DNA from: an uncultured Candidatus Saccharibacteria bacterium
GTDB taxonomy: Bacteria > Patescibacteriota > Saccharimonadia > Saccharimonadales > EFPC-124
Reading direction: 5' to 3'
DNA length: 64,000 nucleotides
Assembly: GCA_965225085.1 (NCBI GenBank)
Contig: CBDDBE010000001.1
Span: forward strand, 65,641-129,640
Shown here: positions 4,471 to 49,088 of the stretch, piece after piece
How positions within the stretch are numbered: position 1 is the first letter of the stretch
Layout of the letters: each line of letters starts with the position of its first letter
Notes under the pieces: generated by a model
What the model saw: the letters and a program-made list of their open reading frames with translations, nothing else
Database searches by the model: none
What the model was told of the DNA's origin: nothing
Made by a program: the position numbers and the translations under genes

Positions 4471-6618
4471 CTACGCTCTCTCCAGGGGTGCAAATTCCAC
4501 ATTCAATTTCTTGATGCTGCGGCCGGCAAATTTGACAGATAGGACCGTACCGTCTATCTCCACAACCTCGCCCTGGCCAAAGACCTTATGCCGAACTATA
4601 TCGCCCACTTCGAGCTCCAGATCCTCAGGGACATACCTCGGCTCGTCATCGAATGATTGCGCCTGAGGTTGTTGCATGCCATACCCGAACATCGGCGCCA
4701 AGACCTCCTGAGCGCTACCGTCAATATCGGCCAGGAACCGCGATGGCGGATTGTGCTGCACACCACCGTATAGTAGGCGGCTCGCGGCATGCGTCAGGGT
4801 TAGCTCCTCGCGCGCACGCGTCATGCCGACGTAGCACAGCCGACGCTCCTCCTCGAGCTCATCGGGATCAAAAAACGCACGGCTATGCGGGAAAATGCTC
4901 TCCTCACATCCGATCATAAATACAGCCGGAAATTCCAAGCCCTTTGCGGCGTGCAACGTCATCAGCGTCACAGCATCGGCCGTATCAGCCGTAGCGTCAA
5001 GGTCGGAAATGAGCGCGACTTCCTCCAGAAATCCCGCCAGCCCCAACGCCTCGTACTCCTGCGCGACACTGGCCAATTCCTTGACGTTTTGCAGACGATC
5101 TTCGGCCTGCAGACTGTCATCATCCAGATACGCCAGGTAATCGGTCCGCTTCAACACCAGGTCGATGAGTAGCCCCAGAGACAGTTTGTCCTGCTGATTG
5201 GTCATGTCCTGCAGCAGCACCCCGAGTGCACCAAAAGCCGCATGGGCCTTGGGCGTAAGCGCTGGGCACATGTCTATCTGCAGCAGCGCGTCCACCAGGT
5301 TCACGTTAGTGCTTGCCTGCCAGTCTAAAAATCGCTGCACGCTCACCGCGCCAAGCCCACGTGCCGGCACATTTACCACCCGCAGAAAGCTCGCGCGATC
5401 TGCCGGTTGATACAATAACCGCAAGTAGGCCAAAAGGTCCTTGACCTCCTTGCGGTCATAGAACCGAGTGCCGCCGACAATGTGATACGGCACGCCATAT
5501 CGGATAAACGATTCCTCGATTGCTCGCGACTGCGCGTTCGTTCGGTACAACACTGCGTAGTCTTGATACCGCCGCGCCTTCATGTCGACCGCGCCCTTGA
5601 TACGACCGACCACAAACTCACCTTCGTGAGCCTCGGACTGCACGCCCACAATCTGCACCTTCGAGCCCTCACCCGCTTTGGTCCAGAGCTCTTTGTCGGA
5701 ACGATTGGTGTTTTTGGTGATGACTTTGTGGGCGGCATCCAGGATGTTTTTGGTGCTGCGATAATTTTGCTCCAGCTTGATAACCAGCGCCTTCGGGTAG
5801 TCACGCTCGAAATTCAAAATATTCTTGAAATCCGCGCCGCGCCAGCTATAAATACTTTGCCAGTCGTCGCCCACCACGCAAATGTTCTGGCTGTCGTTGA
5901 CCAACAGCTTCACCAGTTTGTACTGCGCGGCATTGGTGTCCTGATACTCGTCGATGAGGATGGACTGAAACTGACGACGCCATTTAGCGCGAGCCTCTGG
6001 CACGGTAGCCAGCATGCGCACCGTTTCGCCAATGAGGTCGTCAAAATCCAAAGCTGCCGCATCCTTCCTAAGTCGTTCGTAACCAGCATATACATCAGCC
6101 GTCACATGCTGCTGAGGCATGCGCGCCAGGGATCGATACTCGGCCGGATCGACCAAGTCGTTCTTGGCGCTGCTGATCATGTGGCTGATGGCATTTGGGC
6201 TGTGCTGCTTCTCGGATATGTGCAAATCGCGCATAACTTGCCGGATGGCAGCCTGGCGATCCGATTCGTCGAAGATGACATAATTTTTGGGCACGCCAAT
6301 AGATTCACCATCAAAACGCAGCAATCGCACACAAATGCTATGGAATGTGCCCATAAACGGCATAAAGCTCCGGTCGTCGCCCGACCGCGCCAGAAGCGCA
6401 CCGAGCCTTTCGCGCATTTCCCGCGCGGCTTTGTTCGTGAAGGTAACGGCCAAAATATTCTCGGGGCGAAGGCCTTTTTCGGATATGAGGTACGCAATGC
6501 GATGTGTCAGTGTCTTGGTCTTGCCAGATCCGGCGCCGGCCAAAATGAGCACGGGGCCGTCAGTCTGCTGGACAGCCTTGCGCTGCTCGGGGTTGAGTTC
6601 GTGGAGTAAGTCAGTCAT
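4471..6618 (-). CDS. pcrA: ATP-dependent DNA helicase PcrA/UvrD
   Basis: Walker A AGAGSGKTKTL and the IDEYQDTN motif are present, with overall UvrD-like organisation. I placed the start at ATG 6618 (MTDLLHELNPEQRKAV) rather than the extended ORF start at 6774. Confidence 0.9.
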   Translation of the reverse strand: MTDLLHELNPEQRKAVQQTDGPVLILAGAGSGKTKTLTHRIAYLISEKGLRPENILAVTFTNKAAREMRERLGALLARSGDDRSFMPFMGTFHSICVRLLRFDGESIGVPKNYVIFDESDRQAAIRQVMRDLHISEKQHSPNAISHMISSAKNDLVDPAEYRSLARMPQQHVTADVYAGYERLRKDAAALDFDDLIGETVRMLATVPEARAKWRRQFQSILIDEYQDTNAAQYKLVKLLVNDSQNICVVGDDWQSIYSWRGADFKNILNFERDYPKALVIKLEQNYRSTKNILDAAHKVITKNTNRSDKELWTKAGEGSKVQIVGVQSEAHEGEFVVGRIKGAVDMKARRYQDYAVLYRTNAQSRAIEESFIRYGVPYHIVGGTRFYDRKEVKDLLAYLRLLYQPADRASFLRVVNVPARGLGAVSVQRFLDWQASTNVNLVDALLQIDMCPALTPKAHAAFGALGVLLQDMTNQQDKLSLGLLIDLVLKRTDYLAYLDDDSLQAEDRLQNVKELASVAQEYEALGLAGFLEEVALISDLDATADTADAVTLMTLHAAKGLEFPAVFMIGCEESIFPHSRAFFDPDELEEERRLCYVGMTRAREELTLTHAASRLLYGGVQHNPPSRFLADIDGSAQEVLAPMFGYGMQQPQAQSFDDEPRYVPEDLELEVGDIVRHKVFGQGEVVEIDGTVLSVKFAGRSIKKLNVEFAPLERA

Positions 6619-10087: not shown

Positions 10088-11311
10088 CTAACGGTTCATG
10101 AGGCTCTCGACGCCAGGCAGCTTCTCGCCCGCCATGAGGTCCAGACTAGCGCCGCCACCGGTGCTGACGTGCGTAAAGCTTCCGCCCTTCTTGGGGTCCC
10201 AATGCAGCACAAAATCAACCGTATCGCCGCCGCCGACAATGGTGGTCGTCTGGCCCTGCTGCTTGGCCAACTCGTCGGCGATGTAGGTCGAACCATTACT
10301 AAACGCAGCCACCTCGGCAACACCCATAGTGCCATTCCAGATCACCGTACCCGCACCACGCAGCAGCTCCGTCGAGCGGCTGATGGTATGCGGACCAATG
10401 TCGACAATCAACTGGTCATCGGTGACGTCAGCGACATTCACAATTGTTCGCTGCTGATCACCCTCGAGATTAGTGGTAACCGCGACGTCCGTAGGTAAGA
10501 ACAAAAACTCATCGACGGATTTTGTGCCTGCCTTGCTCAGCGCCTGGGTATAGATTTGCTGTAGGATTTGCTCCTGCCCATCCTCGTGTTTGCTTTTGCC
10601 GATGTTGTGGCCTTTGTACTGTAAAAACGTATTTGCCATAGCACCGCCGATAATCAGTTGGTCGGCCAGCTCGACAAAACGCTGGATAACTTTGATTTTG
10701 TCGCTTACCTTTGCGCCGCCCAGAATAGCCACAAGCGGGCGCTTGGGATTCTCCATCGCCGCCGTGATAGTGCTGACTTCCTTTTCGAGCAGAAGTCCAG
10801 CCACACTGGGCAGGCACCGAGTAATCGCGTCGGTGCTAGCATGGGCGCGGTGTACCACACCAAAGCCATCCTGCACGAAATATGCCGCACCGGTATCGGT
10901 GGCAAGACGACGCGCAAAGGCCTCGTCATCCGCCTCTTCCTCGGGGTGAAACCGCAGATTTTCCAGCAAGACGACCTGGCCGCTGCCCATATTCTTGACG
11001 CCCTGCACTACTTGGTCGCCAACGCATTCGGGCACAAAAGCTACCGGCTGACGCAGCAGATCAGCAAGCCGCTCAGCCACGGGCGCCAAACTGAACGCCG
11101 GATCAGGCTTGCCCTCGGGCCTACCCAAGTGCGAGCAGATCACCACCTCGCAGCCGCGGTCCAGGAGCGCACGCACCGTCGGTACTGACTGCGTAATCCG
11201 ATAATCATCGTCTACTTGACCGTTTTTTAGCGGCACGTTGTAATCAGCACGCAGCAAAACCCGCTGCCCATCCAGGGGAACATCCGTCATGGTCTTTTTG
11301 GTAAATGGCAT
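10088..11311 (-). CDS. pgk: Phosphoglycerate kinase
   Basis: LRADYNVPL is present with a full-length PGK-like layout ending in GGGDT...STGGGASL. I placed the start at ATG 11311 (MPFTKKTMTDVPLDGQRVL). Confidence 0.9.
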   Translation of the reverse strand: MPFTKKTMTDVPLDGQRVLLRADYNVPLKNGQVDDDYRITQSVPTVRALLDRGCEVVICSHLGRPEGKPDPAFSLAPVAERLADLLRQPVAFVPECVGDQVVQGVKNMGSGQVVLLENLRFHPEEEADDEAFARRLATDTGAAYFVQDGFGVVHRAHASTDAITRCLPSVAGLLLEKEVSTITAAMENPKRPLVAILGGAKVSDKIKVIQRFVELADQLIIGGAMANTFLQYKGHNIGKSKHEDGQEQILQQIYTQALSKAGTKSVDEFLFLPTDVAVTTNLEGDQQRTIVNVADVTDDQLIVDIGPHTISRSTELLRGAGTVIWNGTMGVAEVAAFSNGSTYIADELAKQQGQTTTIVGGGDTVDFVLHWDPKKGGSFTHVSTGGGASLDLMAGEKLPGVESLMNR

Positions 11312-11404
11312 AATGCCTTTATTTAAGCATAAGTTCATCAAGCTGCAAAAATCATCTTTCGATGAGTGATGTGGGCTGATTGTTGCAGCCCACATCACTA
11401 CAGC

Positions 11405-11722
11405 CTACTCAGGTGCAACAGGATGCTGCCAGCTGATACTGCCATCATCCTGAAGGATAAGCGTAGACAGCACCACCTGGCAGGTATCGTCGTGCACGAC
11501 AGCCCTTCCAGCAGCCATCTCAGAGACAAGGTCCCCAAGCTGTGCAATGACGGCGGCCTCGGTAATATGGTACTCACCCGGCTTCTGGCAGTGCCGGTAA
11601 AGCTCAGCCAAGGCCGTTTGATGGCCCCGGATAAGCTGCATCTGGATGGCCAGAAGGGTCGTATCCATAACCACTCTGTACACCTGAGCGCCAGTGCGCA
11701 GGGTTACTGCTTCGCCCGACAT
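11405..11722 (-). CDS. Small hypothetical protein
   Basis: 105-aa orphan ORF wedged between pgk and pyk. I recognise no motif. Confidence 0.4.
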   Translation of the reverse strand: MSGEAVTLRTGAQVYRVVMDTTLLAIQMQLIRGHQTALAELYRHCQKPGEYHITEAAVIAQLGDLVSEMAAGRAVVHDDTCQVVLSTLILQDDGSISWQHPVAPE

Positions 11723-11798
11723 AAAACCGCACCTCTCTTCGCGTCATGCGTGAACCGAGCAGATACATAGTAGGCCCCGCCCAACCAACATGTCAAGT

Positions 11799-27387: not shown

Positions 27388-27462
27388 TGGTGACCCCGCG
27401 GAGAGTCGAACTCCGGTTGCCGGGATGAAAACCCGGTGTCTTGACCGCTGGACGACGGGGCC
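27388..27462 (-). tRNA. tRNA-Glu (anticodon UUC), CCA encoded
   Basis: The reverse complement is GGCCCCGTCGTCCAGCGGTCAAGACACCGGGTTTTCATCCCGGCAACCGGAGTTCGACTCTCCGCGGGGTCACCA. It has a 7-bp acceptor stem, the anticodon stem-loop CCGGG-TTTTCAT-CCCGG, and the T-arm GGAGTTCGACTCTCC. Confidence 0.9.
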
Positions 27463-27595
27463 AAAGTGGAGGGCATTGAATTTTATGCTGGCATAAAATT
27501 CAATGATCCGAACATTTGGGTCAATTTACGAAGTAAATTGGGGTCACGCTCATGCATGTTCATCAATTTGCACAATCGTAACAGATCAGATTTTA

Positions 27596-27629
27596 CCAAA
27601 AAAACTACCTCTTGGCTAGAGGTATGTAG
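27596..27629 (-). terminator. Rho-independent terminator of ORF 27695-28009
   Basis: On the minus strand it reads CTACATACCTCTAGCCAAGAGGTAGTTTTTTTGG, a stem followed by a T7 run. Confidence 0.6.
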
Positions 27630-43011: not shown

Positions 43012-44166
43012 ATGTCGAAGCCATATGGCGGGCGCCGCTTGGCGGTGCTAGTGCCGTTCATGGTGGTGTTCGCGTTCTTCGCCTTTTGGCTGAGCGCGAC
43101 GGCTCACGCGCCCACTTCCCAAAGTGGTAACGCGACCATGAGCTTCATCGACACCGACGGACAAACCAAGGCGCTGCCGCTGATCACGGGCGGCGACCCT
43201 GCGAATCCCATCAGCGGGACGCAGGCCAACGCCGACCCGGCCACCATCTCGGTCACCATCGGGACCGTCAACGACAAGTCGCGCACGAACACCTGGTCCG
43301 ACCTCGCTGCCGCTTACGGCGACGAGGGATGGTACCAGGAGTGCGCCACCCGCAACCTCGGCCCCAACTGGAGCTGGGGAACGGATGTGCCGAAGTACGC
43401 AGCCATCGAAGATGCCGCGCCGTTCGGCAGCCTCGACGCCAGGTTCATCCTGGCGCTGAACGTTAGCTCCGGGCTCACCGACGACCAGATCCGCCAGAGG
43501 GCGGCGGCCGACGGCAACCCGGATGTGAGCAAGCTGCCCATCGTGAGGACCGGCTGGATCATCAACACTCGTAGCCTCGGCGACAAGCGTTGCGATCCAT
43601 TCGTGTACGACAGGCCGCAAATTCGCGTCAGCCTGGGCAAGCTTGTCCAGGGACCGGACGGCACCTACCGACCGGACACCAGCGAAGGCATCTTCGTCGA
43701 CTGCCACAACATGTGGCGGATCCCGAAGACCGTACCCGTTCCGACGACACCTACCCCTCCGACCACCACAACCAGCCCCAAGCCGACGCCATCCTCGACT
43801 ACTCCGACCCACACGCCATCCACGCCACCCACGACCAGTCACCCGCCGACATGTGTGCCGCCGGAGACAAAATCGTCAAACGGCGTCTGCGTGAGCCCGA
43901 AGAACCCGACCGCCGGGCCGGGATCGCAGAGCAACGTTCCGACGTGGCAGCAGGGATCAGCCCCGCCGCCCAGCTCTGCACCCGAGCCCAGGCCGAGTTC
44001 CCCACCCTCCAGCTACTCCGCACCGGCACCCCCGACGCCCTCGCAGCCGCAGGGCACTCAGCCCCCGCCGACCACCAGGACGTCGGTCCCGCCGCAGGAG
44101 ACGTCGGCTCCACCCACCAGTGCACCGGCCACCGGCTGTGTGCCGCCGCCAGGCATGACGTGCTGA
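43012..44166 (+). CDS. Secreted hypothetical protein with a Pro/Thr/Ser-rich C-terminal half, in a high-GC island
   Basis: It has a signal-like N-terminus (LAVLVPFMVVFAFFAFWLSATAHA), a ~230-aa Cys-containing domain and a ~140-aa PT-rich tail. Six overlapping ORFs in other frames indicate strongly elevated GC. Confidence 0.6.
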   Translation: MSKPYGGRRLAVLVPFMVVFAFFAFWLSATAHAPTSQSGNATMSFIDTDGQTKALPLITGGDPANPISGTQANADPATISVTIGTVNDKSRTNTWSDLAAAYGDEGWYQECATRNLGPNWSWGTDVPKYAAIEDAAPFGSLDARFILALNVSSGLTDDQIRQRAAADGNPDVSKLPIVRTGWIINTRSLGDKRCDPFVYDRPQIRVSLGKLVQGPDGTYRPDTSEGIFVDCHNMWRIPKTVPVPTTPTPPTTTTSPKPTPSSTTPTHTPSTPPTTSHPPTCVPPETKSSNGVCVSPKNPTAGPGSQSNVPTWQQGSAPPPSSAPEPRPSSPPSSYSAPAPPTPSQPQGTQPPPTTRTSVPPQETSAPPTSAPATGCVPPPGMTC

Positions 44167-44365: not shown

Positions 44366-46210
44366 ATGCATATCATTTCACGATTGCTTCAGCGCGTACC
44401 CAAGCGTCTGCTGCCCATGGGCGTCGCAGTCGCCGCTATCGTGATCCCTGCCGCCGTTATGGCTTGGGGTCCCGACCGCCCAACGTATACCATGGCTCAG
44501 CCCGCTGACCATGTAACATTCGACTCTATCACCGACAACTCAGAAGTCGGCGATGAACGCAACTTTTTGACAATCAAGGATGCCACCAACACCGCTGCTG
44601 GCGGCTGGCAAGACAGCGTAACCGCGCAGCCCGGCCACGAGTACTGGGTACGCATCTACGTCCACAACGACGCAGCCAGCAACCTCAACCTAAAGGCTAC
44701 CAACGTACGCACCAAGGTAAACGTCCCAACCACAACTGGCAAGAGCGTACAGCTGGCCGGCTTCATCAGCGCCGACAACGCCGCTCCTCAGGAGATCTGG
44801 GACTCTGCAACCCTGACAAGCACCAGCGATTTCAACGTTGCGTACGAAGCAGGTACTGCACGACTGTCCAACAACGTCTTTGGCCAAACTGGCGCGCTGC
44901 TCAGTGACGACATCGTCACCAGCACTGGCGCACCATTGGGCTACGACAAGCTCGACGGCGTTATCCCTGGCTGTATGCAGTACTCGGGATACGTCACATT
45001 CAAGGTCAAGGTACAAGGCCCACAAAGCACCACCTTTACCGCGAGCAAAATGGTTAGCAAACACGGCGCAAACCAGTGGACCAAGAGCTATGCAGCTCAG
45101 CCCGGCGAAACCGTTGACTACCTGATCCAGTACAAGAACACTGGCACCACTCAGCAAAACAATGTCGTCATCAAGGACCAACTGCCCGCAGGCGAAAGCT
45201 ACATTGCCGGCACATCGATCCTTGGTAACAGCTTGACGCCAACCGGTGCCAAGATTTCCGACAATGTCACGACTGCTTCTGGCGTCAACATCGGTTCATA
45301 CGCTGCTGGTGCAAATGGTTGGGTTATCTTCAGCGCGAAAGTAGCTGATAACGACGCCCTTCCAACCTGTGGTCCGAACACGCTTGTCAACAAGGCAACG
45401 GCCGAAACCGATTCCGGCAGCCAAAGCGACACGGCTGACGTCACGGCCACCAAGACGTGCGTCACGCCTCCAACGCCGGTTTACGAATGTAGCTCGCTGA
45501 ATGTTGCGACAATTTCGCAAACACAGTTCAAGTTTACGGCTAGCTCGCACATTAAAGATGCACAGCTAAAGACCTACACGTTCGTTGTCCGCGATGCCCA
45601 GGGCAAGCAAATCGCTACCCACGACAGCGCTGACGGCACCTATGTATACGATCAAAATACGGTCGGCACATACACCGTACAGGCAACAGTTGTCGTAACC
45701 GTTGACGGCCAGGACAAGACTGCTACCAGCGACGCTTGCACAAAGCCGTTCGAGGTCAAGCAGACTCCTGTTCAGAACAGCTACGTCTGTGAATCTCTGA
45801 CCAAAATTCAGAAAGCACGCGACACATTCGAGTTTACAGTCACCGCTCCGGTGCAAGGCAACGTTAAGGTCAAGGAGTACCACTTTGACTTCGGCGACAG
45901 CCAAAGCATCATCGTTGGTGCCGGCCAGGAAGTGCAAACGCACACTTACAAGACCCCTGGCAGCTACAACGCGAACGTTTCTGTAACATTCGATGTTGCA
46001 GGCAAGACTGTTCCAAACGTAACGAGCGCCAACTGCGCCGTTACTGTTACAGTCGAGCAGCCACCTGTTACTCCTAGCACACCAAACAGCCTGCCAAACA
46101 CAGACTCTGGCGTTGCGCTAGGCGGCCTCTTTGGCACAGGCGCAGTCGGCATGGGTATCAACTCATGGCTCGGCAGCCGTCGCAATATCCGCGGCAGCTT
46201 CAAGCGCTAG
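44366..46210 (+). CDS. Secreted DUF11/PKD-repeat surface protein with an LPNTDSG sorting signal
   Basis: GAAGGAGAG lies before ATG 44366 as a ribosome-binding site. It has a signal peptide, a DUF11-like unit (AQPGETVDYLIQYKNTGTTQQNNVVIKDQLPAG) and PKD-like units (YHFDFGDSQS...HTYKTPGSYNANVSVTF). The C-terminus has LPNTDSG, then a hydrophobic stretch, then SRRNIRGSFKR. Confidence 0.75.
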   Translation: MHIISRLLQRVPKRLLPMGVAVAAIVIPAAVMAWGPDRPTYTMAQPADHVTFDSITDNSEVGDERNFLTIKDATNTAAGGWQDSVTAQPGHEYWVRIYVHNDAASNLNLKATNVRTKVNVPTTTGKSVQLAGFISADNAAPQEIWDSATLTSTSDFNVAYEAGTARLSNNVFGQTGALLSDDIVTSTGAPLGYDKLDGVIPGCMQYSGYVTFKVKVQGPQSTTFTASKMVSKHGANQWTKSYAAQPGETVDYLIQYKNTGTTQQNNVVIKDQLPAGESYIAGTSILGNSLTPTGAKISDNVTTASGVNIGSYAAGANGWVIFSAKVADNDALPTCGPNTLVNKATAETDSGSQSDTADVTATKTCVTPPTPVYECSSLNVATISQTQFKFTASSHIKDAQLKTYTFVVRDAQGKQIATHDSADGTYVYDQNTVGTYTVQATVVVTVDGQDKTATSDACTKPFEVKQTPVQNSYVCESLTKIQKARDTFEFTVTAPVQGNVKVKEYHFDFGDSQSIIVGAGQEVQTHTYKTPGSYNANVSVTFDVAGKTVPNVTSANCAVTVTVEQPPVTPSTPNSLPNTDSGVALGGLFGTGAVGMGINSWLGSRRNIRGSFKR

Positions 46211-46244
46211 AGATCCACGACTGACCGCTCTCCCCAAAATGCAC

Positions 46245-46276
46245 AAACCACCTCTGAATATTCAGGGGTGGTTTTG
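46245..46276 (+). terminator. Rho-independent terminator
   Basis: CCACCTCTGAA-TA-TTCAGGGGTGG is followed by TTTTG. Confidence 0.75.
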
Positions 46277-46284
46277 CATATCTA

Positions 46285-46670
46285 TGATTTTACCTTTTAA
46301 AAACGACCAGCTGGGCGTTACCAGCCCCTAAGCGTGCGGTCGGATCCAGAGGGTTGGTCCGCGGAAGCAAACGACGTCAACCGGGACGCTATCTCCGGAG
46401 TGCGTCCCCATCCATGGCAACCGCCAGCCGCAGGCAGGAAGAGGGTATACTTTTACCACTCTCCAGCGCAGTGGCCTCCACTGCACTCGGCCGGCCACCC
46501 TAGTGCTGATACGTTTCGTCGAGCTGCTCGAAGGTGTGGTGACGAAAAACCCACCGCCACGGCAGACTCGCGCAGAGCCCATGAGGAACTGTTCGAACCC
46601 ACTTGGGTTATCCTTTCGGTATCGCTCTCCTGCGCGGAATCCGCAGAGGAAGAGCTCGAGGAAACCATCA
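46285..46670 (-). other. G+C-rich hairpin-dense non-coding region (candidate ~370-nt structured RNA, family unassigned)
   Basis: No credible CDS: three junk-looking ORFs lie in different frames. Several 7-14-bp hairpins are present, for example GGGACGC..GCGTCCC, GCAGTGG-AGG-CCACTGC and CTCTTCCTCTGCGG-ATT-CCGCGCAGGAGAG. A minus-strand promoter-like TTGCTC-N17-TATGAT sits at 46672-46700, and the minus-strand sequence ends in GTCGTTTTT near 46290. Confidence 0.3.
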
Positions 46671-46671
46671 A

Positions 46672-46700
46672 ATCATATAATGATACGACCGTTTGAGCAA
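46672..46700 (-). promoter_or_regulatory. Candidate promoter reading into the 46285-46670 region
   Basis: On the minus strand, TTGCTC is at 46700-46695 and TATGAT at 46677-46672, with a 17-nt spacer between them. Confidence 0.35.
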
Positions 46701-46730
46701 TAGCAGGCTCTCTTGTATAATACGCTTAGT

Positions 46731-46943
46731 ATGAGTAAGCAAAAGAAAAAACGCACCAAGTCCTACACTGGTCGAGACGCCGCGCACGGCCCAACGGTCC
46801 ACCGCTATACAGCAGAGCTCAAAAGCCCCGCCCGCGAGTGGTGGGATGGCCACAAACGCGCTATCAAATACACCACGTATATCGGTGGTGGTGGCATCCT
46901 GGTCGTGTGGCTGCTAACCGAGTTCTTTCGAATGGTCTTCTAG
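46731..46943 (+). CDS. Small basic membrane protein
   Basis: MSKQKKKRTKSYTG... with the C-terminal TM segment IGGGGILVVWLLTEFF. The extended -10 TGTATAAT (46714-46721) ends only 9 nt before the ATG, so the mRNA would be near-leaderless. Confidence 0.5.
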   Translation: MSKQKKKRTKSYTGRDAAHGPTVHRYTAELKSPAREWWDGHKRAIKYTTYIGGGGILVVWLLTEFFRMVF

Positions 46944-49088
46944 GCCAGTTGGCTGATGCAGGGGCAGCCGAAATCCAAACGTGCTACCTTTGCCTTCGGT
47001 ACTGCTAAAAATAACTGAACCGCCGTGCGCCACAATGACCTTCTTGGCCATGAACAGCCCTATCCCCGTGCCATCTGGCCGGGCCGTGCGTGCATTACTG
47101 GCACGGTAAAACTTGGTAAACAAATGGTGCCGCTCGCTGGCGGGCACACCTATACCGTCATCCTGAACAGTCAGCGCTACTTCTTTAGCAGTACGAACCA
47201 GGTCAATGTGTATGACGCCCCCGGGGCGGGAATAAAAGATCGCGTTATCGATAAAGTTCATTATCGCTTGCCGGAGCTTGCCTTCATCGAGCTGAAGTGT
47301 CGGAAAATTACTGGGCACGCTGCACTGCAAGGTAATGTTGCGGTCTTGCGCTGCGGTTTCTAGCTGCTTCGCCTCCTGTTGGACGACCTGGCTCAGAACT
47401 ACTGGCGTACGTTCGATGGTAAATTTGCCAGTTTGCAGTCGCGATACGTTGAGAAAATCGCTGATAAGGTACACCATTCGCTGCGAGCTACCAAAAGCCT
47501 GCTCCAACAGTTGCCGTTGCGTCTGGTTCAGGGTGCCCGCGTCGCCCTCGAGCACCATCGAGAGGTAGCCTTTTACGCTGGTGAGCGGCGTACGCAATTG
47601 GTGTGACGCCATGCTGATGAACTCGTCCTTGGCTTCGTCAAGCGACTTTAGTTTCTTGTTACTGGCGCGCAGTTCGCCCGTAGCTTCGCGTATCTGGCCC
47701 TGTAGCGTCTCGTTGAAATGCGAAATCTCCTCGAAACGGAGTGTATTCTGAACCGCCACGCCTAGGCCATCCGATGCCGTCTCGAGCATTGCCAGATCTT
47801 GCTTGTGGTAGGATGTACCGTTCAGCTTGTATCCGCACAGTATGTACCCGACATCTTGCCCAGTAGGCTTGAGGCTGAGGACCACTGCGACACCATGATT
47901 GTCCAATGCCTCCAACGGAAGGCCTTGACCACCTTGGGCTAGTTCTTCGGCCACCAAAACCGCATGATGCGGCAGCCTACTCAGTACCAGATCGTCCAGG
48001 CCTTTTGGTCGCTTACCGGTGTACGTCGCTAGACGCATCGCATTCTCGCCCGGAGCCTTGGTGTATGCTGCCAAAAAAACCGGGTGCAGCACATCGCCCA
48101 GTACATCCATCGACTTAGCCAGCAACAGCTTAGACGAAACACTGCGCGAGGCGATATCGCCCAACTGGTTTAGGACAAATTTGACATCGTACAAATCCTG
48201 AAAAAACACACGCCGCGTCACGATATCGAAGAAGGCTCGAAGCGGTTGATACGCTAGCGCTGCGATCAGCAGGAAACCTATATACGCTGCGCGCTGCCCG
48301 GCGCTGCTGTTGCCACCCAGGAACCTATCCACCAAAAAGAACGATGCCAATGCAAACCACACCGCAAGCGTCCCAAGCGTCAGCGTGTAGGTGAGCGTAC
48401 GGGCAGCAACCAATCGCACGCTGAACAGCTGCTGGCGAACGATTGCATACGTGATGATACCAGCAAACAGCAGCGCAGAGTACGTACCGTATCGCGCCAA
48501 CGGGTTCGTGCCGGTCACAAGCGGCAGCAGCAAATTGGTCATAGAACTGATGATAGCCATAATCAGCACGCCCGCCAGGATAAGCCTCAGACGATCACGC
48601 GCCACGCCTCGTTCAGCTCGGAATTTCCGCACTAGTAGCACAACCGCTCCACCCACAAAAACCACAAAATAGATCAAGAATAGAATGTACAGCGGGCCCG
48701 TGACGACATTTGACGTCCCACCGCTGAACTCAACTGACGGTATAAATAACGGCAACCATGCGACCGCTCCCATCACCGCCGTTGCGGGCCAAAACAACAT
48801 CTGACGCGGTATCGACAAAGGGACCTCGTGGGGGAAATTCCACACGAAAGCCAGGAAGGCCGCGGCAGCTACCACAACAGCTTCGAAGGTAAGTCGTGTC
48901 CAAAACAGCGATCTGACTGGGTCAGAATCTGCCAGCCCATTGGCCGCGACCCATCCGGCAAGTGCCACGCACAGAACCGCGAAGCTACGACGCGCGCGCG
49001 ATTTGCCCGACCCAGTGGCGATAAAACCGCCTAACATCAACAGCGACACGCATACGAGCAGGGTCGCCAAAAAGCTTACGCTTACCAT
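46914..49088 (-). CDS. Sensor histidine kinase with a multi-TM N-terminal sensor region
   Basis: 724 aa with about 7 N-terminal TM segments and a GAF-like middle. The H-box is SMASHQLRTPLTSVKGYL and the ATPase G-box is GTGIGLFMAKKVIVAHGG. Confidence 0.85.
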   Translation of the reverse strand: MVSVSFLATLLVCVSLLMLGGFIATGSGKSRARRSFAVLCVALAGWVAANGLADSDPVRSLFWTRLTFEAVVVAAAAFLAFVWNFPHEVPLSIPRQMLFWPATAVMGAVAWLPLFIPSVEFSGGTSNVVTGPLYILFLIYFVVFVGGAVVLLVRKFRAERGVARDRLRLILAGVLIMAIISSMTNLLLPLVTGTNPLARYGTYSALLFAGIITYAIVRQQLFSVRLVAARTLTYTLTLGTLAVWFALASFFLVDRFLGGNSSAGQRAAYIGFLLIAALAYQPLRAFFDIVTRRVFFQDLYDVKFVLNQLGDIASRSVSSKLLLAKSMDVLGDVLHPVFLAAYTKAPGENAMRLATYTGKRPKGLDDLVLSRLPHHAVLVAEELAQGGQGLPLEALDNHGVAVVLSLKPTGQDVGYILCGYKLNGTSYHKQDLAMLETASDGLGVAVQNTLRFEEISHFNETLQGQIREATGELRASNKKLKSLDEAKDEFISMASHQLRTPLTSVKGYLSMVLEGDAGTLNQTQRQLLEQAFGSSQRMVYLISDFLNVSRLQTGKFTIERTPVVLSQVVQQEAKQLETAAQDRNITLQCSVPSNFPTLQLDEGKLRQAIMNFIDNAIFYSRPGGVIHIDLVRTAKEVALTVQDDGIGVPASERHHLFTKFYRASNARTARPDGTGIGLFMAKKVIVAHGGSVIFSSTEGKGSTFGFRLPLHQPTGLEDHSKELG

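Follow-up and report, generated by a model that had tools for sequence, protein, structure and literature searches.

A G+C-rich stretch beside a conserved small gene of Saccharibacteria is probably non-coding filler, specific to its strain or species, in a hypervariable slot

The stretch analysed here separates a surface-protein gene from a conserved small gene in a Saccharibacteria genome (Table 1; all positions refer to the window, that is, the whole 64-kb piece of DNA under analysis). The surface protein ends in LPNTDSG, a hydrophobic stretch and a basic tail (46100-46210), which by eye resemble a variant sortase sorting signal. Between its stop codon and its terminator lies a short GACTGAYCGCTC box (46219-46230). 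An earlier note on this DNA, made from the letters alone, had placed the stretch between the terminator of the surface-protein gene and the promoter of the next gene, and both flanking signals were found. Only 9 nt separate the -10 box of that promoter from the ATG, pointing to a nearly leaderless mRNA for the 70-aa gene. The small gene itself is widely conserved: 19 homologues were present in a large protein collection, one identical and the others 63-77% identical, and 97 loci were found across GTDB species representatives, mostly Saccharibacteria/Saccharimonadales, with a top match of 76% identity. The window accordingly belongs to a Saccharibacteria (TM7, Patescibacteria) MAG to which the collections contain no close relative. 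In close relatives with a visible downstream gene, the 70-aa gene converges with a histidine-kinase gene, mostly of the HisKA_7TM type, and overlaps its 3' end.

Table 1. Features of the locus, in window coordinates
Feature	Position	Strand	Remarks
Surface-protein gene, 626 aa	44330-46210	+	PKD and DUF11 domains; left neighbour of the stretch
Bidirectional terminator hairpin of the surface-protein gene	46245-46274		15-nt arms, 93% complementary; left conserved edge of the slot
Variable slot content (the stretch in question)	46278-46712		~435 nt; unique to this strain
Weak terminator-like hairpin GGCTGG-TAACGC-CCAGCT, then GGTCGTTTTT	46297-46326	-	Reported by the scan (hairpin at 46326-46309)
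Predicted multibranch 3' half	46330-46512	-	From MFE structures; hairpins 46383-46408, 46465-46487 and ~46437-46464 (the last read off the structure print)
Predicted 5' domain, with a 13-nt inverted repeat (46513-46525 / 46653-46665) as its closing stem	46513-46665	-	From the repeat list and the folds
Promoter-like site TTGCTC-17-TATGAT	46672-46700	-	From the sequence; 8/12 consensus positions
Small-gene promoter TTGAGC-17-TATAAT	46693-46721	+	Reported by the scan; 10/12 consensus positions; borders the slot on the right
Conserved 70-aa gene, Lys-rich N-terminus, hydrophobic C-terminus, no known family	46731-46943	+	19 homologues, 97 GTDB loci
HisKA_7TM histidine-kinase gene	46914-49088	-	Convergent with the 70-aa gene, overlapping

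The stretch contains no protein-like ORF, as the earlier note had stated, and codon usage, periodicity and family searches all agree on this point. We trained a codon log-odds model on the 21 long genes of the window. These genes score +0.05 to +0.42 per codon and the neighbouring 70-aa gene +0.13, whereas the stretch's five ORFs of 49 aa or more score between -0.10 and -0.33, on a scale on which 186 spurious ORFs average -0.165. The period-3 signal of the stretch (2.09) equals the 95th percentile of shuffled sequences (2.09) and is exceeded by all 75 coding chunks of equal length (minimum 2.26, median 6.7). Pfam, NCBIfam and PADLOC gave no match in the stretch, and its concatenated six-frame translation had zero matches at E of at most 10 among 5.8 billion proteins. 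The 120-aa ORF at 46334-46696 retrieved three matches from 1.84 billion representatives, all of them long, internally repetitive proteins. We rejected these as artefacts because each of them sums weak matches to internal repeats (at most 30 bits each) and covers a different part of the query. Residual protein similarity of the kind expected of a pseudogene was found neither in the six-frame search nor by tblastx against the contents of the corresponding intergenic space in relatives and against all loci, where nothing was significant (best E = 0.06).

All helices listed in the earlier note exist. GGGACGC-N12-GCGTCCC, with CTCCGGAG inside it, lies at 46383-46408, the GCAGTGG-CCT-CCACTGC helix at 46468-46484, a 12-pair hairpin at 46624-46653, and GCTGG-TAACGC-CCAGC at 46310-46325, with the GGTCGTTTTT run (46306-46297) next on the minus strand. 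However, their strength had been overstated. The minimum free energy (MFE) of the 416-nt stretch is -173.5 kcal/mol for the minus strand and -158.7 kcal/mol for the plus strand (z -3.65 and -3.84, respectively, relative to dinucleotide shuffles), and on both strands none of 100 shuffles was as stable. Yet 64 equal segments over the 64 kb have a mean z of -0.78 with a standard deviation of 2.07, and in this run the stretch (z -4.0) ranks only fifth of 64, with four segments of the same DNA scoring better. The stretch has two perfect stems of 7 bp or more, compared with a mean of 0.32 per segment, and 6.3% of the segments do as well. The fold is ill defined: 46 of its 132 pairs have a probability above 0.9, pairings compete in the 5' half, and alternative foldings compete inside the predicted 5' domain. 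The description as G+C-rich holds in direction, but the excess is modest, the GC content of 46285-46700 being 0.57 with a peak of 0.635 compared with 0.547 for the whole window, and it falls within the range of nearby 200-nt segments, which reach 0.73. Overall, the structure signal of the stretch is moderate and lies in the tail of the genome's own background.

Comparison with relatives places the stretch in a slot with conserved borders and changing content. On the left, the window shares with the loci L004, L010, L012 and L013 the C-terminus of the surface protein, the stop codon, the post-stop box and the terminator; the homology stops directly after GGGGTGGTTTT in all four. The box is present in all five genomes, and its counterpart in the four relatives reads TTGACTGAYCGCTCA. 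On the right, conservation in all close relatives sets in at the small gene's -10 box. Each genome holding both flanks (four relatives and the window) carries a different content of 300-1440 nt between them. The slot of L004 (304 nt) is dominated by one long hairpin with a stem of ~23 bp (z -7.0) and that of L013 (518 nt) contains long hairpins (z -5.8), whereas that of L010 (465 nt) has no ORF and no fold signal (z -1.3). The slot of L012 (1443 nt) holds minus-strand ORFs, including one for a 182-aa Cys-rich protein, and that of the window (about 435 nt) has no ORF that looks coding. In L009, two minus-strand ORFan genes lie upstream of the small gene at the slot position, and in L001, L003, L005 and L007 another gene is found upstream, at most ~130 nt away. 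Family searches assigned the cargo proteins of the relatives' slots to no known family. Parts of the slot are shared among relatives: L010 has 126 nt in common with L011 (76%) and 125 nt with L012 (70%), both pieces spanning a promoter and leader, and L004 matches L013 over 162 nt at 80%. The window's slot content has nothing in common with those of the relatives. The terminator, the post-stop box and the -10 box are visibly conserved at this evolutionary distance, but the stretch is not.

The earlier note had looked to relatives for conservation that would support a structured RNA. None was found for the stretch, either at the syntenic position or in 1.3 Mb of related loci. Neither blastn nor nhmmer gave a match in 1.28 Mb of related loci (~20 kb per genome around the small gene), and blastn, nhmmer and two covariance models all failed to detect the stretch in 10 syntenic loci and in 80 Saccharibacteria loci from GTDB. 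These models, R1 for the 3' half and R2 for the 5' domain, were built from the single sequence with 141 and 159 positions and returned only self-matches from 1.33 Mb. The stretch is carried only by the same-strain Logan contigs L008 (3.1 kb) and L091 (10.3 kb), which stem from other runs; because both are 100% identical to the window, they offer no variation to analyse. Beyond the relatives, plasmids and phages searched by BLAST in distant mode gave no match, nor did viral contigs scanned with two patterns from the region (exact 21-29-mers) or JGI metagenome contigs scanned with two 21-mers from it. These negatives are not exhaustive, because the pattern scans of viral and metagenome contigs detect near-identical DNA only and the relatives were covered at ~20 kb each.

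The piece common to L010, L011 and L012 comprises a divergent minus-strand promoter and the start of a leader (L011 750-900, L012 about 2520-2680, L010 about 4785-4910, minus strand). The promoter reads TTGACC-17-TTATAT in L011 and TTGACG-17-TTATAT in L010. By eye, the leader contains the nested helices GCGAGA...UCUCGC and GGGCGC...GCGCCC; it had no Rfam match. In L011 and L012 the promoter leads into an ORFan gene for a Cys-rich protein (182-189 aa). L010 keeps the promoter and the first part of the leader but lacks the Cys-rich gene and has ORF-less sequence instead.

A site of this kind had been noticed in the window as a minus-strand promoter reading into the stretch. TTGCTC-N17-TATGAT is indeed present at 46700-46672. 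Its spacing from the small gene equals that of the promoter in L011, with which L012 aligns; in L010 the promoter is about 40 nt more distant. The -35 boxes of the window's two divergent promoters overlap. However, the minus-strand site agrees with the consensus at only 8 of 12 positions and was missed by the promoter scan. The terminator-like end proposed for the same strand fared similarly, in that its hairpin was reported by the scan, but its U-run begins 5 nt past the stem. The 2 kb scanned contained 8 such terminator-like sites, compared with 2.5 expected.

The best explanation, and one that we consider probable, is that the stretch at 46278-46712 is filler: non-coding sequence specific to this strain or species, inside a hypervariable intergenic slot of this Saccharibacteria genome. 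The slot is anchored on the left by the stop codon of the surface-protein gene and the bidirectional terminator and on the right by the promoter and start of the 70-aa gene. In L010, L011 and L012, the divergent minus-strand promoter beside the small gene appears to drive a changeable cargo toward the shared terminator. In L011 and L012 this cargo is made up of ORFan protein genes, in L010 of an ORF-less stretch, and L009 has two minus-strand ORFan genes in the same location. At this position the window has a weak promoter-like site, ~370 nt without coding potential and a weak terminator-like hairpin, and the stretch may thus occupy the cargo position of a minus-strand unit. Most likely, the cargo was lost or replaced, and the leftover sequence would have no conserved function. 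Transcription of its minus strand may persist, beginning at ~46665 and ending either at the weak terminator (~46297) or at the shared one. The excess of local helices would be a by-product of a G+C-rich, locally palindromic sequence, of which stronger examples appear elsewhere in the genome.

Of the readings in the earlier note, the decayed insert comes closest to this explanation. It fits best, as the slot content differs in every relative examined, but neither residual gene similarity nor the insertion marks of a mobile element were found. The analysis brought up no remnant of an earlier gene, so that the loss of a cargo is read from the neighbours only. Two observations speak against filler, namely that the fold beats every one of the shuffles on both strands and that the promoter-like and terminator-like signals bracket the stretch on the minus strand in the order of an sRNA gene. 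The nearest relatives are distant, with at most 77% identity in the 70-aa neighbour, and a young species-specific functional RNA would therefore look identical to filler.

The alternative that survives best, although we regard it as unlikely, is a species-specific structured sRNA of ~370 nt in the cargo position, transcribed from the minus strand with a start near 46665 and an end near 46297 or ~46240. It would make sense of the correct order of the two signals, of a promoter-like site placed like the conserved divergent promoter of L011, of the fold (z about -3.7 to -4.0) and of the lack of coding potential. Orphan sRNA genes likewise combine a promoter-like site, a non-coding body and a terminator-like hairpin on one strand with a fold beyond shuffles. 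However, bacterial sRNAs are typically 50-300 nt long, so that the stretch would be longer than most, and both of its signals are weak, the promoter for its agreement with the consensus and the terminator for its poor quality. No search returned a homologue, hence there is neither covariation nor conservation, the fold is ill defined, and four other segments of the 64 kb outscore it. The MFE fold of the minus strand contains 16 G-U pairs compared with 5 on the plus strand, which at first sight favours a minus-strand RNA. We rejected this asymmetry as a strand indicator, because the minus strand is G+T-rich throughout the neighbourhood, flanking genes included, and local strand composition accounts for the difference. 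The unknown structured RNA of the earlier note thus retains a fold steadier than shuffles, but its stability stays within the tail of the genome background and it gained no other positive support. Somewhat less probable still is that a young species-specific structured RNA of ~370 nt is made from the slot's divergent promoter as an RNA 'cargo' that replaced the protein cargo of sister lineages.

The stretch could also have arrived recently from a foreign or mobile source (a MITE-like element, host DNA or DNA of another kind), although we give this little credence. Its higher G+C would then be accounted for. The GC peak above the window mean, a 10-nt, 90% inverted repeat near both ends (46337-46346 / 46682-46691) and the occurrence in this strain only are consistent with such an origin. 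MITE- and REP-like elements are similar in being hairpin-rich intergenic DNA with short inverted repeats near their ends. Unlike them, the stretch is single copy in the searched sequence, with no second copy in the window or in the 1.28 Mb of relatives' loci, and no target-site duplication around it was seen in the repeat list. Furthermore, no donor was found among the plasmids, phages, viral and metagenome contigs and proteins searched, and the GC excess is not unusual for the neighbourhood. The comparison with accessory-gene hotspots between core genes is closer, because the flanks are conserved, the homology ends abruptly and the content of each genome is ORFan or ORF-less. In contrast to such hotspots, the slot is very small (0.3-1.4 kb), and neither an integrase nor a tRNA or repeat boundary was seen that could account for its turnover. 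A template repeat of a diversity-generating retroelement (DGR) serving the neighbouring surface protein was also considered and rejected, as the window contains no matching variable repeat; the flanking genes scanned include no reverse transcriptase.

It is very improbable that the stretch encodes an unrecognised small protein, for which the candidates would be the 120-aa plus-strand ORF or a 71-aa Ser-rich minus-strand ORF from the ATG at 46668. Open frames exist, the period-3 signal reaches the upper end of the shuffled range, and ORFan genes fill the same slot in L009, L011 and L012. However, the codon log-odds of the two frames (-0.10 and -0.29) lie under those of every real gene, the family and protein searches found neither a family nor a homologue apart from the repeat artefacts described above, and the gene calls of the same-strain contigs list no gene at this position.

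The housekeeping RNA suggested in the earlier note was pursued with the Rfam comparison that it had proposed, which was run at three sensitivities and gave no family match in the region. With Rfam 15, neither gathering scores nor E of at most 1 across the whole window gave a match there. A search of 46150-46800 (651 nt) with permissive filters and E of at most 10 gave no match to RNase P RNA, tmRNA, SRP RNA or 6S RNA; three trivial matches were listed, one terminator and two short fragments. ARAGORN reported only a tRNA-Glu in the window and no tmRNA, standard or permuted. The P4 strand of RNase P RNA, GAGGAAAGUCC, was not found within 46200-46760 with up to 2 mismatches, and at this tolerance it occurs at 7 sites in the 64 kb compared with 12 expected by chance. 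We also searched the literature on non-coding RNAs of Saccharibacteria and Patescibacteria and found nothing relevant. In size range and G+C-rich helices the stretch is like RNase P RNA, tmRNA, SRP RNA or 6S RNA, and its GGUAACGCC hairpin is similar to one in E. coli RNase P RNA, but it lies at the 3' end beside the U-run and not after a P4 strand. A divergent housekeeping RNA is hence very unlikely: no model or motif matches, and such an RNA would be conserved or at least recognisable in relatives, in whose loci (~20 kb per genome) the stretch was not found.

If the stretch is filler, as we favour, little follows for the biology of the strain, and a false lead for a missing housekeeping RNA is removed. 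It would also mean that a fold z near -4 alone is no sign of an RNA gene in this genome. A by-product of the analysis is the small hypervariable slot itself, which lies beside a widely conserved pair of small gene and histidine kinase in Saccharibacteria. For finding novel RNA or DNA elements of the lineage, better targets would be the spacers of L004 and L013 and the segment 58189-58489 of the window.

The L004 and L013 spacers share a 162-nt element (L004 1233-1395, L013 9490-9645; 80% identity) directly after the shared terminator. By eye, on the minus strand, it leads from a promoter-like site (TTGACG/TTGACA-18-TTTTAT/TTTCAT) through a GC-rich hairpin to the bidirectional terminator, and it is a candidate for an sRNA of about 100 nt. 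A shared inner core of the lineage's long hairpins, TTGTGKT-N4-9-AMCACAA, was considered as a repeat family and rejected, having one match each in the window and in L013.

The intergenic segment 58189-58489 has a z of -12.4 (MFE -137.6 compared with -81.5 for shuffles), far stronger than that of the stretch. It folds into two hairpins of ~100 nt, in both of which a long outer stem encloses a perfect, AU-rich inner one of 12-13 bp. It had no Rfam match and lies upstream of a gene whose product has, by eye, an acetate-kinase-like N-terminus. A cluster of perfect hairpins at 27462-27620 adjoins the tRNA-Glu gene (27388-27462, minus strand); nowhere in the window is the density higher, with as many as 5 perfect stems (7 bp or longer) in 416 nt, and the segment has a z of -6.4. 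The most extreme value of the 64-segment scan, z -7.3, belongs to 11285-11700, which contains a hairpin of ~13 bp near 11367-11400; an 87-aa minus-strand ORF was seen by eye in the gap 11399-11798. Finally, a 384-aa ORF without a Pfam match occupies 43012-44166, where GC reaches 0.73, GC3 is 0.82 and the fold z is -4.6, and it is overlapped by a 264-aa antisense ORF.
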